Part shown: positions 5,502 through 61,295 of the stretch, one piece after another
Layout of the letters: every line of letters begins with the position of its first letter
How positions within the stretch are numbered: position 1 is the stretch's first letter
IMG/VR virus record: IMGVR_UViG_3300014732_000001
Span: 1 to 64,000 of that record
Reading direction: 5' to 3' (one strand)
DNA length: 64,000 bases
Source of the DNA: a virus
Taxonomy: Duplodnaviria > Caudoviricetes
Program-made: the position numbers and the translations under genes
Notes under the pieces: generated by a model
What the model was told of the DNA's origin: nothing
What the model saw: the letters and a program-made list of their open reading frames with translations, nothing else
The model's database searches: none

Positions 5502-6002
5502 CTAAAACGGTAATCCTTCTTCATCGTCCCAACTCGGAGCTGGAATGTAATTCTTTTGTGGGACAGGCTTTTTAGCTACTTTCTTATCAAGTTTAGTAGA
5601 ACCAATTATATTTGTCCTGAAAGATTCCACAATCTTACCCTCTTTATCAAGAATGGCAAGATTTAATTCTCTGTCAAAGATGTAGGAATTACTTCGATGG
5701 TTGAATGACATTTTACCTTTCACCGACAAATAGCCGCAGTCAGCAAGAAGCTTAATAGCTTTGCCGACAGTCTTACGCACGACACAACAAGCAGTTGCTA
5801 TGTCTTCTTGGTTATCAAAATAGCCATTACCTTGTCCTTTGAAGAACTTCCATCTATCAAGCATATAATGAAAGACAAGCTTCTGCACATCAGGGAACTT
5901 CTCATATTCTCCTGTGTTTAGGTTTAGAATGTGTGTCGCTTTGGTGACATTATGGTATGTCGGAAAATAACTGTCAACTGTTGTTTGGTCTGTTTTGTTC
6001 AT
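5502..6002 (-). CDS. RepA_N-like winged-HTH protein, cassette copy 1
   Basis: 'KLVFHYMLDR..FF...QEDIA..C...KTVGKAI' matches the two paralogs at 30878 and 60801; ends WDDEEGLPF. Confidence 0.7.
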   Translation of the reverse strand: MNKTDQTTVDSYFPTYHNVTKATHILNLNTGEYEKFPDVQKLVFHYMLDRWKFFKGQGNGYFDNQEDIATACCVVRKTVGKAIKLLADCGYLSVKGKMSFNHRSNSYIFDRELNLAILDKEGKIVESFRTNIIGSTKLDKKVAKKPVPQKNYIPAPSWDDEEGLPF

Positions 6003-6169: not shown

Positions 6170-6450
6170 TGTAACTTTAATTCCAGCCGGAGTAACCCAA
6201 ATACCCCTACCACTGGGAACCATAGTTACAATAGTAAAAATGATGTTATTAAAAATGATAGAAACAAAAATGAATAAAGGGCATTAAAAGCCTGTTTCTT
6301 TTATCTCATTTTCTTATCCTCCATTGTTCGCTACGCTCACACTTAACTCCGTATTGGTGCTAAGCTTTTAGAGGTCAAAGACCGATATACATTTGTTTGT
6401 GCAAAGCGTAGCTTATATGAAAAATAATGGCAATGGGTAAATGGGTTACA
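6170..6450. repeat. Iteron-like 17-bp imperfect repeats and conserved core, cassette copy 1
   Basis: TGGGAACCATAGTTACA (6214-6230), TGGGTAAATGGGTTACA (6434-6450), inverted copies near 6170-6186 and 6191-6208; core 6351-6394 nearly identical to 60494-60537. Confidence 0.7.
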
Positions 6451-6463
6451 CCGGGGTTGTTAG

Positions 6464-19578: not shown

Positions 19579-20286
19579 CTAGAACGGAATCGAGTCGTCG
19601 AAGCTATCAAAGTCTGGAGCAGGTTCAGCTTCCTTCTTAGCCTCCGGAACCGCTTTGGGCTTCTCTTCTTGTTGCACTTCTTCTTGCTTGCTCTCCACTT
19701 TCTTCACTTTGTAGCTAACACCAAGCACATCATCATCTACACTATCAGCGGCTGCTTTCTGCTCATAAGCTACATGTTCCAGCACTTGAACAGTGTCAAG
19801 AGTGACAACAACCTGACCTTCTTGGTTGCGGTAACCAAACAGTTTCAGTGTGCAGACAGAACCGTTACCAACATTCTCAGTGAAAGGCTTACCGTCTTTG
19901 TCAATTACGTTGACAGTCATAGGATTACCTTTCTTGCTGAACTCAGGCTTAGCTACAGTGAAGCCATACATACCCTCAACAGCGTCATAATTTACCTTAC
20001 CTTCTTCGGTTTGAGAAGATAGTGGGTATTTGATTCGACGTGGCGGCTTAGAAGTCTTATCCTTGCCAACAAGAGCAAAAGTCTTATTCACCATCACTTC
20101 ATCAAGCAGTTTGTCTTTGGTTTCCTCATCAACAAACACCGTTACACTATATTCCCGATCCTCAGACTGATACTTCTTCTTAGGCTCGTGAAGCACCGGA
20201 TAGAAGACAGTTGCGTCTTTGATGTACAGGTTTACAGTTTCCAGAGAACCAGTTTTAGGCAGGTCACGGAGTACGATACTAGTCAT
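19579..20286 (-). CDS. Single-stranded DNA-binding protein
   Basis: T7 gp2.5-like OB pattern ('VGNGS.C.LK'), acidic tail ending FDDSIPF, own promoter. Confidence 0.8.
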   Translation of the reverse strand: MTSIVLRDLPKTGSLETVNLYIKDATVFYPVLHEPKKKYQSEDREYSVTVFVDEETKDKLLDEVMVNKTFALVGKDKTSKPPRRIKYPLSSQTEEGKVNYDAVEGMYGFTVAKPEFSKKGNPMTVNVIDKDGKPFTENVGNGSVCTLKLFGYRNQEGQVVVTLDTVQVLEHVAYEQKAAADSVDDDVLGVSYKVKKVESKQEEVQQEEKPKAVPEAKKEAEPAPDFDSFDDSIPF

Positions 20287-30370: not shown

Positions 30371-30399
30371 TTGACATTTAGAGGAGGAGGGTGGAGAAT
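30371..30399 (+). promoter_or_regulatory. Promoter heading cassette copy 2
   Basis: TTGACA-N17 (G-rich)-GAGAAT. Confidence 0.5.
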
Positions 30400-30419
30400 T
30401 GGTGGTAGGGAAGAAAAGG

Positions 30420-30671
30420 TATGGGACTGAAAATCTCCCTATATAGGATCAAAAATCCTACACGTATGGGATCAGAAGTCTCTTTATCAAGATAGAGTAA
30501 TAAGATAGAAAGAACAAAAACGAATAAATAATGAAAGCATCGTGCAAGCACGACAGGTCGTAGACCAAATGAAAGCTTGTGTATCTGGCTTTTATCTTTT
30601 ATTATTTTTGTGTGCAAAGAGCGTAAGCGAAGAAAAGAAATACGAAAGGTATAGGATCGTAAGTCCCATAC
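30420..30671 (+). repeat. Iteron-like 21-bp repeats and hairpin core, cassette copy 2
   Basis: TATGGGACTGAAAATCTCC (30420), TATAGGATCAAAAATCCTA (30442), TATGGGATCAGAAGTCTCT (30465), TATAGGATCGTAAGTCCCA (30650); GGTC-GTA-GACC at 30556. Confidence 0.78.
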
Positions 30672-30696: not shown

Positions 30697-30822
30697 ATGA
30701 CAAACCTAATTGTACCCCGTGACCTTCTGCGTTGGATCGATGAAAATCGTGGAAGCCTGAGTCGTCAGAGCTATATTATAAAATGCCTGTTCAAACTCAA
30801 GGAGGTTAGCGAGATGAAGTAG
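30697..30822 (+). CDS. Small ribbon-helix-helix (CopG/Arc-like) protein, cassette copy 2
   Basis: 41 aa MTNLIVPRDLLRWIDENRGSLSRQSYIIKCLF..., AGGAG RBS; paralog of 60630-60752; absent from track. Confidence 0.7.
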   Translation: MTNLIVPRDLLRWIDENRGSLSRQSYIIKCLFKLKEVSEMK

Positions 30823-30877: not shown

Positions 30878-31354
30878 ATGAAAGAGGAAACATTTTACAA
30901 AATACCAAAATCTCTGATGAAAGCAACTGGATACTACAGCTTAGAGAACGGGAATCCTGTTATCCTTACGATAGCAGCGAAGCTTGTCTACACCTATATG
31001 CTGGACAGGCTTGTGTTTTTCGTAGATAAGCAGAAAGGGCAACATTTTGAGTCACAGCAAACAATTGCTGATGCTTGTGGTTTGGAATATAAGGTGGTAG
31101 GTAAAATCCTGCGTCAATTTATGGATAATGGGGTTGTTTTTGGTAAGAAGCTGCGTCCGAATGGCAGAGGTCAGTGGCGTTGGCATTACACTAAAATCGA
31201 AACAGGTCTTGACTTCTGGCAAGGTTCTTCAGAAAATCCTGTCAGGGTTGGGAAAGATTTTGTTGAACACAAAGCTACTATTCCAGTACAAACAAAGAAA
31301 AATCTTGACAGCCCACCATCTTGGGTGGATGATGAAGAAGGATTACCATTTTAG
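30878..31354 (+). CDS. RepA_N-like winged-HTH protein, cassette copy 2
   Basis: 'FYKIPKSLM...LTIAAKLVYTYMLDR' parallels RepA_N 'FY.LPK.L..LS..AK..Y..L.DR'; ends DDEEGLPF. Confidence 0.72.
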   Translation: MKEETFYKIPKSLMKATGYYSLENGNPVILTIAAKLVYTYMLDRLVFFVDKQKGQHFESQQTIADACGLEYKVVGKILRQFMDNGVVFGKKLRPNGRGQWRWHYTKIETGLDFWQGSSENPVRVGKDFVEHKATIPVQTKKNLDSPPSWVDDEEGLPF

Positions 31355-31367
31355 GAGGATTTTACCT

Positions 31368-32129
31368 ATGAACTTGAAAGAATATATGCAAATGAAGTAC
31401 CCAAATAGCAAGAAAAAGCACCTGAACTCTATTGAATTCGATATATTCGGTATCTTAGATCACAGTAAGGGTTGGTTCAAACGCAACGAGGGGTTGGAAC
31501 TTACACAAGAGCAAATTAATAAAGTCTATTTCCGTACAAGCAGTTTACGAGGAAGTAAGAAAAGCAAAACTCTCGCCCGAATTGCAAACGCCGTAAAAGA
31601 TTATGAAGTTACAGACAATAAATACGTTTACCTAATGAAAAACGCTAACGAGATGCTTAAAATTGGGATTTCCGTGGACCCAATCAGACGAGCCAGGAAC
31701 ATTTCAACATCCTCTGGTGTTCCTACGCATCTTGTGGCGTTCTGGAAAGTTGATCGTAGAGCGGTAGAGGTTGAATCAAAGCTTCTGAAACATTTCAAGC
31801 GGCGTTCAACCCTTGGTGAATGGTTCAGTCCAAATTCGTTCTCAATACAAGAAATCGAGGCTCAGATTGGGTGCAATTTTGAAAGAAAGTTTTTATTGGA
31901 GGATGTATATAAAAAGGTTGAGCGGAGCACAGAAAAACACAGCTATGAGCGGGTGAAATTTCAAACAACTAAGGCAAAGCTTTTTGTAATCCAAGGAATT
32001 GATGTATGGGTTCCAAAAGCTGTGATCGAGGTTGAGAAAGACGGTGAACTTGAAACTTCTGGAACATTCTTGTCCGAGAAGATTTCAGGCTTACTGAAAT
32101 GTCAAGATTATTTTAGTCAGGGTGTGTAG
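31368..32129 (+). CDS. GIY-YIG-related (T5orf172/MUG113-like) endonuclease
   Basis: 'YVYLMKN..LKIGIS.DP.RR...VESKL.KHF...GEWF'; start after AGGAGG overlapping upstream stop. Confidence 0.82.
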   Translation: MNLKEYMQMKYPNSKKKHLNSIEFDIFGILDHSKGWFKRNEGLELTQEQINKVYFRTSSLRGSKKSKTLARIANAVKDYEVTDNKYVYLMKNANEMLKIGISVDPIRRARNISTSSGVPTHLVAFWKVDRRAVEVESKLLKHFKRRSTLGEWFSPNSFSIQEIEAQIGCNFERKFLLEDVYKKVERSTEKHSYERVKFQTTKAKLFVIQGIDVWVPKAVIEVEKDGELETSGTFLSEKISGLLKCQDYFSQGV

Positions 32130-42120: not shown

Positions 42121-43003
42121 CTTATCTATCACATAAACATCTAAAAACCTTCATACACTCGCCTCTAAACCCCAATACACTCTCCTTAATCCATCCTCTA
42201 ACCCCTTCCTACCATCACCAGGTACCACCTACTACTATCCCCTACACTGACCATTCATGCGATAGCATGAGAAAACACACAAGCCAGCGCCTACGCTGTC
42301 TGTAAGCACCTCTCTAACACACTTCCCCCTTCAAAATATCATTCTAAATATCCCCTCTAATACACTTGGAGTGAATGCGAGACATCGAATGATGTTAAGC
42401 ATGAACGATTCCAAATAGCCACCTCTAGCACGTCAGTGCCCCTATATCCATCCCTTAACGTCAGTTAAAAACTGTCTCCTACTCGATAGCGTCAGCTATC
42501 CCTGGTAAATATCATTCCAATTGGAACAATTGAATTATTAATATTCCCTATGGTGAGTTGAGAAAGTCATTTAACAAAAATCGGATTATGCGAAGTCACC
42601 TTTACATACACCATTTTCAATAGTTCTAAACTATGGATGTTCTTTAGTAAAGAGTATGTCAATGTGAGGCTATACAGCGGTATAGTGAGAGTCTATTAGA
42701 TATTTCTGGAATATAGATTTAGTTTATGGTAGGGTGGGTAGCAGTGTTAAACCCCTCAGACATAGAGCTGGGATTTATTGAAAAGGTTTGACTTGATGTG
42801 GGGATATTTTCTACAGACAAAGAAAAGGGACTGCCCTAAAAAGAGCAGTCCCAAAAATAGAGGGGGTTGGTGTTCTCAGATATGTTTCCAATTATCTTCT
42901 GCTTCATTCACCTTAAATACTTACTATATTATGTAGGCCCATCTGCTCTACACCGAAATACAAGGGATACAGAGCATCGGATGGACATTTGATGTCCCAT
43001 CAG
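42121..43003. other. Non-coding convergence zone with strand-skew flip and mini-hairpins
   Basis: No credible ORF; C/A-rich left part, G-rich right part; three c(GTCA)g hairpins at 42428-42500. Confidence 0.65.
42821..42857 (-). terminator. Bidirectional-looking terminator
   Basis: GGGACTGC-N10-GCAGTCCC flanked by A tracts. Confidence 0.7.
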
Positions 43004-60197: not shown

Positions 60198-60230
60198 TTC
60201 AACTCTCCTCTTTATTGAACAGCTAGGAGA

Positions 60231-60325
60231 AGAATACATCCCCTTACTCCTGCACGTCAAGCAATTTCTTTAAGAAAATTTATTTGTTTTGTGTGTTGAC
60301 AGGAGGGGAGAGGTGGGGTTACTAT
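60231..60325. promoter_or_regulatory. Back-to-back sigma70 promoters at head of cassette copy 3
   Basis: Minus: TTGACG (60260)-N18-TATTCT; plus: TTGACA (60296)-N18-TACTAT. Confidence 0.62.
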
Positions 60326-60341
60326 TGGTCATCACTAGGTG

Positions 60342-60620
60342 ATGTGAAAATCTTTCCTACACCATGTGAACAACGTTCCTACATTTATAGGAACAAATGA
60401 CACAGTAGTAAGATAGAAAGAGAAAGATAGATTTAAGAAAGAGCTTTACTTATAGGAACAAAATTCCTATTCTTTTCTTTCTTGTATTTGGTTGTATCGG
60501 TGCTAGGCTTTTAGAGGTCGAAGACCGATATACATTTTGTTGGTGCAAGAAGCGAGAGCGAATTAGAAGAAAGATTGTTGTAGGAACAATTTTCCTATAT
60601 TGTGTGAACAATGATCATAC
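60342..60620 (+). repeat. Iteron-like 19-bp imperfect palindromes and conserved core, cassette copy 3
   Basis: Six copies at 60342, 60364, 60387, 60452 (perfect ATAGGAA-N5-TTCCTAT), 60580, 60602; core 60494-60560. Confidence 0.82.
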
Positions 60621-60629
60621 GGAGGTGTT

Positions 60630-60752
60630 ATGAACCTAAAGCTACCATTCTTGGTACTACAGTGGATTGATGACAATAGAGGGGGTAAGACACGCAAAGC
60701 ATTTATCGTAGATTGTTTAGTGATGTTGGTAAAAGAAAACAGGAAGCCTTAA
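60630..60752 (+). CDS. Small ribbon-helix-helix (CopG/Arc-like) protein, cassette copy 3
   Basis: 40 aa MNLKLPFLVLQWIDDNRGGKTRKAFIVDCLV..., GGAGG RBS; shares WID.NRG..R...I..CL with 30697-30822; absent from track. Confidence 0.7.
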   Translation: MNLKLPFLVLQWIDDNRGGKTRKAFIVDCLVMLVKENRKP

Positions 60753-60800
60753 AACTTTAATACTCAGGCTTACCGTAGAAAATCTAGTATGGAGGTAAGT

Positions 60801-61295
60801 ATGCAAGAAATAGATGAACAGTTTTACAAATTCCCTAAAATGCTGATGATGGCAGATGCTTATGTGAGCAGGAAAACGGGAGAGATTGTTAGGTTGACAG
60901 ACGCAGATAAGAATGTGTATGTTGTGATGAAAGCTCGTAACGAGTTCTTTGACAACCATTACGACAAGCAATCGGACATTGCAGAGATGTGTAACCTTAC
61001 AGTCAGGAAGGCCGGAGGGGCCATCCGTGAATTTACAAAACACGGTATCATTGAGAGCAGTAAGGTTTATTCAGGCGGAGAGCACAAGAATCTCAAGTAC
61101 ACCAAGATTCATTGCTTGGAGCTTCTAAGGGGCGAGGGTGAAGGAGGTAAACGGAAACACATACCAATAGGCGTTCTCCCAGAGACAATCTGGCAGAAGG
61201 TTGAGAAGAGGGCTGTTATGCCTAAGGTAGTACAACAGAAGAGTATTTATACACCAGCACCAAACTGGGACGACGAAGAAGGATTACCATTTTAG
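60801..61295 (+). CDS. RepA_N-like winged-HTH protein, cassette copy 3
   Basis: 'FYKFPKMLM..AYVS..G..V.LTDADKNVY'; ends WDDEEGLPF; start at 60801 after GGAGG. Confidence 0.72.
   Translation: MQEIDEQFYKFPKMLMMADAYVSRKTGEIVRLTDADKNVYVVMKARNEFFDNHYDKQSDIAEMCNLTVRKAGGAIREFTKHGIIESSKVYSGGEHKNLKYTKIHCLELLRGEGEGGKRKHIPIGVLPETIWQKVEKRAVMPKVVQQKSIYTPAPNWDDEEGLPF

Follow-up and report, generated by a model that had tools for sequence, protein, structure and literature searches.

Mini-hairpins occur at the complementary-strand origins of G4 and St-1/alpha3 and in the ssiA signal of RSF1010, and they bind SSB poorly; precedents of this kind, on which a first, sequence-only reading of the locus described here had drawn, are indeed present in the literature, as are the N4 promoters (PMC13037366). 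The same source defines the mini-hairpin motif as d(GCGNAGC) or d(GCGNNAGC), while the unusual thermal stability of such hairpins and their resistance to nucleases and SSB are known for synthetic oligonucleotides only (PMC13037366). Among plasmids, the RepA_N-type Rep protein of pSK41 binds the DnaG primase, and pAMbeta1 carries an ssiA downstream of its ori (PMC5703833). The iterons of RepA_N initiators are "inverted repeats converging on a poly-A tract," and how these initiators hand over to the replisome is an open question for both the PLE and plasmids (PMC7145576). The choice of start sites in lytic phages with T7-like replisomes is poorly known. In lambdoid phages, according to what Grosschedl and Hobom reportedly found in 1979, the type-specific iterons match the DNA-binding domain of the initiator and adjoin a conserved, AT-rich, strand-asymmetric segment and a small palindrome; this conserved segment is said to serve the shared replication machinery, with which the conserved C-terminus of the initiator makes contact.

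The phage DNA that we analyzed (the window) covers the first 64 kb of a virus record that is 90,460 bp long and has 43% GC. The genome encodes a T7-like primase-helicase, a family-A DNA polymerase, a Gp2.5-like SSB, a ribonucleotide reductase, and tail fibres, and neither tRNA genes nor Rfam matches were found in the searched phage DNA. Judged by the primase-helicase, its nearest named relatives are phages of Aeromonas, Vibrio, and Shewanella (~60-65% identity). Within this 90-kb lytic phage lie three plasmid-like "origin plus initiator" cassettes, named A, B, and C:

From ~6160 leftward, minus strand: RHH gene of cassette A, with the rep-like gene at 5502-6002.
30697-30822, plus strand: RHH gene of cassette B, with the rep-like gene at 30878-31354.
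60630-60752, plus strand: RHH gene of cassette C, with the RepA_N-like initiator gene at 60789-61295 (Pfam and PHROG matches).

As the sequence-only reading had stated, the proteins next to the putative origins are highly diverged: the three RepA_N-like proteins share 28-41% identity in pairwise comparisons, and DDEEGLPF forms the C-terminus of each. The rep-like proteins match RepA_N, HTH_36, and DUF6945 weakly, a PHROG "replication initiation protein" was also matched, and their profile finds the N-terminal domain of V. cholerae PLE RepA (PDB 4RO3) with an E of 3.5e-10. The DDEEGLPF tail resembles the C-terminus of the phage's own Gp2.5-like SSB (19579-20286, minus strand), which is FDDSIPF. 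A T5orf172/MUG113 (GIY-YIG-like) endonuclease gene (31128-32129, plus strand) directly follows the rep-like gene of cassette B, and L025 has a 219-aa ORF (~1470-2130) at the equivalent position; a homing endonuclease beside a rep-like gene could help cassettes move between phages. Sharp minima of the cumulative GC skew fall precisely on cassettes B and C; they are not independent evidence, because they coincide with gene-strand switches and are inseparable from transcription. The maxima of the skew lie near 4 kb and 41 kb, cassette A being just beyond one of them.

Related cassettes were recovered from IMG/VR and metagenomes by protein and pattern searches. They fall into the following types:

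Orthologues of A: L010-L013, L026, and L028, with L025 as a more distant A-like type.
Orthologues of B: L008 and L023.
Orthologues of C: L003 and L021, with L022 as a divergent C-like cassette.
Further types: D (L004, L019), E (L005), and F (L007, L009).

The number of cassettes per genome is one to three: three in this phage, and one or two in related phages with complete genomes of 87-90 kb. Type D is found in the genomic slot of type C, behind identical back-to-back promoters (60200-60335 compared with L004/L019), and whole cassettes have therefore been exchanged. The cassettes thus behave as exchangeable alleles, bounded by the promoter region on one side and by the conserved DDEEGLPF/RBS end on the other. 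In more distant isolates, namely Rheinheimera phage Barba, Pseudaeromonas phage KLEP7, Aeromonas phage PAc, and Pseudomonas phage phiPMW, the overall plan of iterons, AGATAGA purine tract, T/G-rich tract, and rep-like gene is kept but the exact core described below is not; an RHH gene precedes the rep-like gene in Barba, KLEP7, and PAc.

Each cassette contains a single non-coding stretch of ~70 bases, the core, with the features listed here:

60494-60498, plus strand: copy C, GTATC box at the left edge of the core, aligned as GTATY.
60507-60512, plus strand: copy C, GCTTTT box (alignment A4).
60516-60526, plus strand: copy C, mini-hairpin 1, GGTC-GAA-GACC, a covarying stem of 4 bp.
60529-60542, plus strand: copy C, TATAC and the T/G-rich run (TTTTGTTG), a run seen in every type.
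60543-60548, plus strand: copy C, GTGCAA box, whose minus strand reads TCTTGCACC, 7/9 of a DnaA box.
60551-60563, plus strand: copy C, AGCG-AG-AGCGAAT, containing GCGAGAGC (60552-60559), which fits the GCGNNAGC motif.
6351-6414, plus strand: copy A core, with GTATT at 6351, GCTTTT at 6364, and GTGCAA at 6399.
6373-6383, plus strand: copy A, mini-hairpin 1, GGTC-AAA-GACC.
6404-6414, plus strand: copy A, AAGC-GTA-GCTT, containing GCGTAGC (6406-6412).
30541-30628, plus strand: copy B core and hairpin, with the palindrome CGTGCAAGCACG at 30541-30552.
30556-30566, plus strand: copy B, GGTC-GTA-GACC at a non-homologous position.
30581 onward, plus strand: copy B boxes, GTATC at 30581, GCTTTT at 30588, T-rich run at 30594-30611, GTGCAA at 30612, and GCGTAAGC at 30621-30628.

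The initial observation that 60494-60537 and 6351-6394 match at 41 of 44 positions was borne out by blastn-short (93.2% identity; E 1e-12 within the 90-kb genome). When a profile built from 12 aligned cores was run with nhmmer, it found three sites in the 90,460-bp genome, all of them in cassettes, with E values of 1e-17, 9e-16, and, for copy B, 3.5e-9, the next-best match having an E of 0.085. In related complete phages, the same profile matches their one or two cassettes. Likewise, GGTCNNNGACC occurs three times in the window (6373, 30556, and 60516), once per cassette, where 0.42 occurrences are expected; a fourth copy at 74049, beyond the window, is unrelated. Searches of phage and plasmid collections by blastn gave no match, and an IMG/VR pattern scan for the GTGCAA..AGCGA box gave at least 119 matches, mostly due to chance, from which filtering left only the known cassettes. 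The core was rejected as coding sequence: the minus-strand ORFs at 60450-60611 and 30378-30617 are mutually unrelated, start with TTG, and are spurious.

A backbone of boxes is common to all cassette types, and its order is constant: GTATY, then GCTTTT, a T/G-rich run, GTGCAA (replaced by GTGTAA in type E), and finally AGCG-N1-2-AGCGA (GCGNAGC or GCGNNAGC). GTATY is invariant in 12/12 aligned cores, CTTTT is invariant in core alignment A4, and the GTGCAA box is the most conserved island between cassette types. The T/G-rich run is also found in the distant relatives Barba, KLEP7, and PAc. All the elements first described in the three copies (GGTC-loop-GACC, T-rich stretch, GTGCAA, and GC-loop-GC) are therefore present, with the qualification that the hairpin of copy B is not homologously placed: it lies 5' of GTATC/GCTTTT and ~56 nt before GTGCAA, whereas the hairpins of A and C lie between GCTTTT and the T-rich run, ~27 nt before GTGCAA.

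The core diverges much less than its surroundings. Per nucleotide, cassette C and L003 differ by 0.013 in the core, by 0.045-0.078 in the non-coding flanks, and by 0.05-0.07 in genes; for cassette A and L028, the values are 0.054 (core) and 0.21-0.24 (flanks). The core of orthologous cassettes thus diverges 4-5 times less than the flanks. When cassette types are compared, the right half of the core is one conserved non-coding island and the purine tract is another. The core is a real, cassette-specific non-coding DNA element, and this pattern of divergence indicates that it is protected by selection.

Hairpin 1, at its position in A and C, takes four or five stem forms across relatives: GGTC-GAA/AAA-GACC, AGGC-GAA-GCCT in type D, AAGC-GAA-GCTT in A-type cassettes of G003/G004, and GAGTC-GTA-GACTC in L025. 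The stem is 100% paired in seven sequences, with compensatory double changes in three of its four pairs. The C and G that close the loop and the A at the end of the loop are invariant, and this C(NNA)G pattern is the hallmark of DNA mini-hairpins (PMC13037366). The covariation score of the stem was reached by none of 500 shuffles and no slid register was as good, a statistic that is optimistic because the hairpin windows were centered by eye and the sequences are few and related. Consequently, the outcome that the sequence-only reading had named as counting against it, neither conservation nor covariation in relatives, did not materialize, since the core is conserved and hairpin 1 covaries. 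The earlier idea of a core with mini-hairpins common to all cassettes holds for the backbone of boxes but not for hairpin 1, which is missing at the A/C position in types B, E, and F. In L022, CTTGC-GTTA-GCAAG stands at the position of GTGCAA.

The second "hairpin" has an invariant 2-bp stem, and its loop begins with A rather than G in types D and E, where box 2 is GCAGAGC or GCAAAGC and falls outside the GCGNAGC/GCGNNAGC motif. Reading it as a sequence motif, namely AGCGN repeated in tandem, is equally possible. The motif is matched by GCGTAGC in A, GCGTAAGC in B, GCGAGAGC in C, and GCGGAGC in F, while GCGAAGC lies within hairpin 1 of D and A', and GCGTTAGC is found in L022. In the three cores, there are five C(GNA/GNNA)G hairpins with stems of at least 2 bp on the plus strand and one on the minus strand, against 0.34 expected per strand, in regions that were chosen because of these hairpins and whose three copies are homologous. 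The G/A-N-A loops with a C-G closing pair are confined to the plus strand. Stem-loops of the kind seen in ssi signals, strand-specific and evolutionarily maintained, are thus present. The substantial structure of such signals (tens of nucleotides, several hairpins) was not found in the cores, whose stems have only 2-5 bp, and the ssDNA and RNA folding energies of the cores are no better than those of shuffles on either strand (z -0.8 to +0.1; the A-type minus-strand RNA described below is an exception), the nearest-neighbor parameters not modeling the special stability of GNA loops.

Similar hairpins are seen elsewhere in the genome. Across its whole length, 24 plus-strand and 5 minus-strand C(GNA/GNNA)G hairpins have stems of at least 4 bp; of those on the plus strand, seven fall within gene blocks of the minus strand. 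Four are clustered at a convergent gene boundary (42255-42500 in the window), three of which have a C(GTCA)G loop on different stems.

As for the surroundings of the core, the following features were found:

60400-60487, left of the core: copy C, purine tract (AGATAGA repeats), central iteron, and pyrimidine tract, the least stable duplex.
60346-60594: copy C, semi-palindromic iterons of the TAGGAAC-A/T-GTTCCTA type, bracketing the module (repeat search).
30419-30435 and 30655-30671: equivalent iteron arms of B.
6187-6206 and 6435-6454: equivalent iteron arms of A.

The iterons are cassette-specific semi-palindromes converging on an A/T tract, a form that matches the iterons of RepA_N initiators (PMC7145576). 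At 60400-60487, the nearest-neighbor dG per bp is -1.09 to -1.18, the window mean being -1.33 (sd 0.11), and this tract is the likely unwinding element. In each cassette, the least stable duplex (60400-60475 in C, 6220-6260 in A, 30475-30520 in B) lies immediately left of the core, which itself is of average stability. In their anatomy, the cassettes have what iteron-type theta origins have: a neighboring initiator gene, repeats as initiator sites, and an AT-rich element for unwinding. By this anatomy and by homology they are putative origins, and the core, as is typical of an ssi signal, adjoins what would be an initiator-dependent unwinding region. The original proposal of a single-stranded signal used once the iteron region melts therefore has the location in its favor, beside the most easily melted iteron part and next to a RepA_N-type initiator, but finds no signal in folding energies, and the primase, PriA, or helicase loader that it had put forward are candidate readers only.

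Several observations concern the tracts themselves. AGATAGA heptamers are repeated two to four times in the purine tract (60407-60431 and 30490-30512 in the window, and in L004, L005, L157, L155, and L001). They accompany the "LP..LL.WID.NRG..SRQ" class of RHH proteins even in the distant Barba and KLEP7, with L022 as an imperfect exception, and phiPMW also carries them. A-type cassettes have a different RHH and AAAAATGAT repeats instead of AGATAGA (6236-6259). These purine-tract repeats may be RHH operators. L022 (~800-1090) has an insertion of ~130 nt between purine tract and core. This insertion includes a long-range inverted repeat of 7 bp (AGCTGGC/GCCAGCT) and, preceded by a GGAGG, a possible hydrophobic ORF of 22 codons.

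The orientation of the core bears on whether it acts as DNA or RNA. Cassettes B and C each have an upstream TTGACA promoter, and their cores are inside the operon leader. In A, no sigma-70 promoter is predicted and the RHH-rep operon runs leftward on the minus strand from ~6160, so that the A-type module is inverted relative to its operon, an arrangement kept in L010-L013, L026, L028, and G003/G004. The polarity of the module is nevertheless constant in all three cassettes, running from the A-rich tract through the T-rich tract and the core to the right arm, with the operon on either side. Moreover, the three cores are co-oriented within this genome (G000), as are the A-type and D-type cores within G003. 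Core orientation is therefore uncoupled from the operon, which favors DNA over RNA. Since it follows the module and the genome and not the mRNA, the core is unlikely to act as leader of that mRNA or as an antisense RNA to it.

The core thus most likely works as DNA and would supply every replication origin with its shared half, the one for priming or loading. Our preferred reading, to which we give a probability of about 0.4, is that it is a DNA-level cis element and the initiator-independent half of the origin: a plus-strand single-stranded-DNA initiation or loading signal made of mini-hairpins. The cassette-specific RepA_N-like protein would bind its own iterons, and the adjacent purine/pyrimidine tract would melt. 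Melting would expose the plus strand of the core, in which C(GNA)G or GCG(N)NAGC mini-hairpins could form and resist coating by SSB. The hairpins would then mark the site of the first primer or the loading site of a 5'-3' helicase-primase, and the SSB-like acidic tail of the initiator (DDEEGLPF) might bring in the machinery. In this scheme, we infer both the formation of the hairpins and the identity of the factor reading them. One-strand signals in modules that are all co-oriented fit poorly with simple bidirectional initiation, and no transcript-primed (ColE1/pAMbeta1-like) scheme fits all types because transcription of the A-type operon opposes the module.

The candidate readers include the phage primase-helicase (24577-26256, minus strand), which is only 26-41% identical across G001-G004 and G007. 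Since the cassettes are found in phages with helicase-primases this different, a phage primase with sequence specificity is a less likely reader than a host protein or than a generic property of structured DNA free of SSB. Co-evolution of the stem with the primase-helicase found no support, a near-identical B module (GGTC-GTA-GACC) being present in G007, whose primase-helicase is 26% identical to that of this phage. A T7-type primase site (GTC in GGTC/GACC) was also discarded, the AGGC and AAGC stem variants being without GTC. The replication gene block is highly mosaic in this group of phages, and phages with nearly identical cassettes differ in their primase-helicase.

The best-surviving alternative, which we nonetheless consider unlikely, is that a shared protein, in the simplest case the DnaA of the host, binds the core as duplex DNA, and that the hairpins are incidental or a short palindromic operator. 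The boxes would then be read as sequence, like the DnaA and IHF sites beside the iterons of pSC101, P1, F, and RK2. Conservation without covariation in the top boxes (GTATY, GCTTTT, GTGCAA, and AGCG..AGCGA) is what a duplex site would show, and the GGTC/GACC stem recurs in all three modules, including copy B at its non-homologous position. In 8 of the 12 cores, the minus-strand reading of TGTGCAAAG is cTTTGCACA, which agrees with the DnaA box TTWTNCACA at 8/9 positions, with variation at degenerate positions, and the corresponding sequence in phage Barba is TTATACACc. Also in favor of DnaA, the succession of T-rich run and TGTG.A.A on one strand resembles the DUE-R1 arrangement in oriC of E. 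coli. A host factor would in addition suit cassettes that function in phages with very different helicase-primases. However, DnaA-like 9-mers with one mismatch are common (2.2 per kb in the genome versus 4.5 per kb in modules), copy C has two mismatches (7/9), and KLEP7, phiPMW, and L022 are without such a box there. Compensatory stem changes around an invariant C..A-G are unlike a sequence-specific palindrome, and scans for IHF, Fis, and CRP consensus sequences found nothing.

Somewhat less probable is a variant of the single-strand reading in which the host reads the core as a portable signal for priming. The mimic of the SSB tail would recruit a host partner of SSB, for instance DnaG primase or PriA, which would begin synthesis at the mini-hairpins of the plus strand, and each cassette would be a plug-and-play origin able to work in lytic phages with unrelated helicase-primases. 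If true, a host-read signal would explain why relatives have one to three interchangeable cassettes, co-oriented within a genome.

Less credible again is the idea that the core is a functionless relic of a common cassette ancestor, the copies being kept alike by gene conversion and the palindromes made by template-switch mutation. The cores of A and C are indeed far more alike than their flanks, stems are closer within a genome than between orthologues (GGTC three times in G000; AAGC/AGGC, i.e., RGC/GCY in both modules, in G003), and several homing-endonuclease-like genes could drive conversion. Nevertheless, low core divergence also holds between orthologues in different phages, beyond the reach of conversion within a genome, and the same ordered boxes recur in different types and different genomes. 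All variants of the stem pair completely and have an identical closing pair, and conversion of homologous tracts leaves the stem of copy B at another position unexplained.

The lowest probability goes to the core acting as RNA, either as an attenuator or a structured segment within the ~300-nt leader of the RHH-rep operon or as a small or antisense copy-control RNA like the RNAI of pSK41-type RepA_N plasmids or, as a further copy-control RNA, the RNAII of pMV158. In types B, C, D, E, and F, the core does lie within a leader transcribed from a strong TTGACA promoter, the short hairpin followed by a T-rich run is faintly terminator-like, and RepA_N plasmids are known to have rep leaders under antisense control (PMC5703833). 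The minus strand of the A-type folds better as RNA than shuffles (z -3.15), which reflects an A-specific inverted repeat. This A-type repeat, formed over 8 bp by GCTACGCT (6330-6337) and AGCGTAGC (6405-6412), brackets the core. The A-type core is antisense to its operon in at least four relatives, so no orientation to the rep mRNA is fixed and no single RNA sense exists for all types. RNAalifold over the cores gave no consensus fold (-0.72 kcal/mol; 0 compensatory pairs), plus-strand RNA folds were not significant, stems of 2-5 bp with triloops are weak in RNA, a search of the core against Rfam had no match, and neither a promoter nor a terminator of its own is predicted at the core. The small RNA that the sequence-only reading had offered as an alternative is thus disfavored, and the core is probably not an RNA.

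Two promoter-based explanations were rejected. A phage-specific promoter class does not fit a core profile restricted to cassettes, with no consistent -35/-10 on either strand by hand inspection of all types and promoter scans, and the annotated "phage specific promoter" of phiPMW is unrelated to the core. An N4-like hairpin promoter was dismissed as the genome is without a vRNAP gene and without a giant or T7-like RNA polymerase ORF, its largest ORF being a 1006-aa DNA polymerase.

Taking the core to be a single-stranded initiation signal, one of its closest counterparts, alike in overall order, is the oriV of RSF1010 (IncQ), where initiator (RepC) iterons are likewise followed by an AT-rich melted stretch and short hairpin ssDNA signals, ssiA containing a CCGAAGG mini-hairpin (PMC13037366). 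In RSF1010, however, there are two signals of ~40 nt on opposite strands, read by the plasmid's own RepB' primase, whereas the phage core would have hairpins of 2-5 bp on one strand in a cassette without a dedicated primase gene. The G4-type origins (G4, St-1, and alpha3; the G-site of R1/R100; and F ssiA) have GCGAAAGC or GCGTTAGC mini-hairpins at an SSB-free primase start site. The likeness extends to the exact GCGTTAGC in L022, to GCGAAGC in D and A', and to GCGNAGC/GCGNNAGC in A, B, C, and F, but the three hairpins of G4 oric are longer and the start of DnaG is defined there, while no larger structure or conserved CTG start was seen in the cassette cores.

Among the RepA_N-type replicons, the DNA-binding domain of V. 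cholerae PLE RepA is homologous (4RO3), and its iterons are inverted repeats converging on an A tract (PMC7145576). No conserved mini-hairpin core has been described in the PLE and pSK41 replicons, and in pSK41 the ori is inside rep, under antisense RNA control. The pAMbeta1 ssiA is similar in being a one-strand single-strand signal shortly downstream of a melted origin (PMC5703833); that plasmid is transcript-primed and unidirectional, and the A-type orientation rules out one such scheme for all cassettes. Lambda-type origins resemble the cassettes in placing type-specific iterons next to a conserved segment. The ori of lambda is inside the O gene and host DnaB is loaded there through P, in contrast to the phage module, which is intergenic and has a RepA_N-like initiator and a T7-like replisome.

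Set beside these systems, the cassettes have an initiator-specific part (the iterons) and a shared part (the core) that are cleanly separable, and their natural variants, with the hairpin swapped or absent, the module inverted, and one to three cassettes per genome, make up a ready-made mutational series. If the core is an ssi-type signal, the mini-hairpin theme would extend from ssDNA phages and plasmids to large lytic dsDNA phages.
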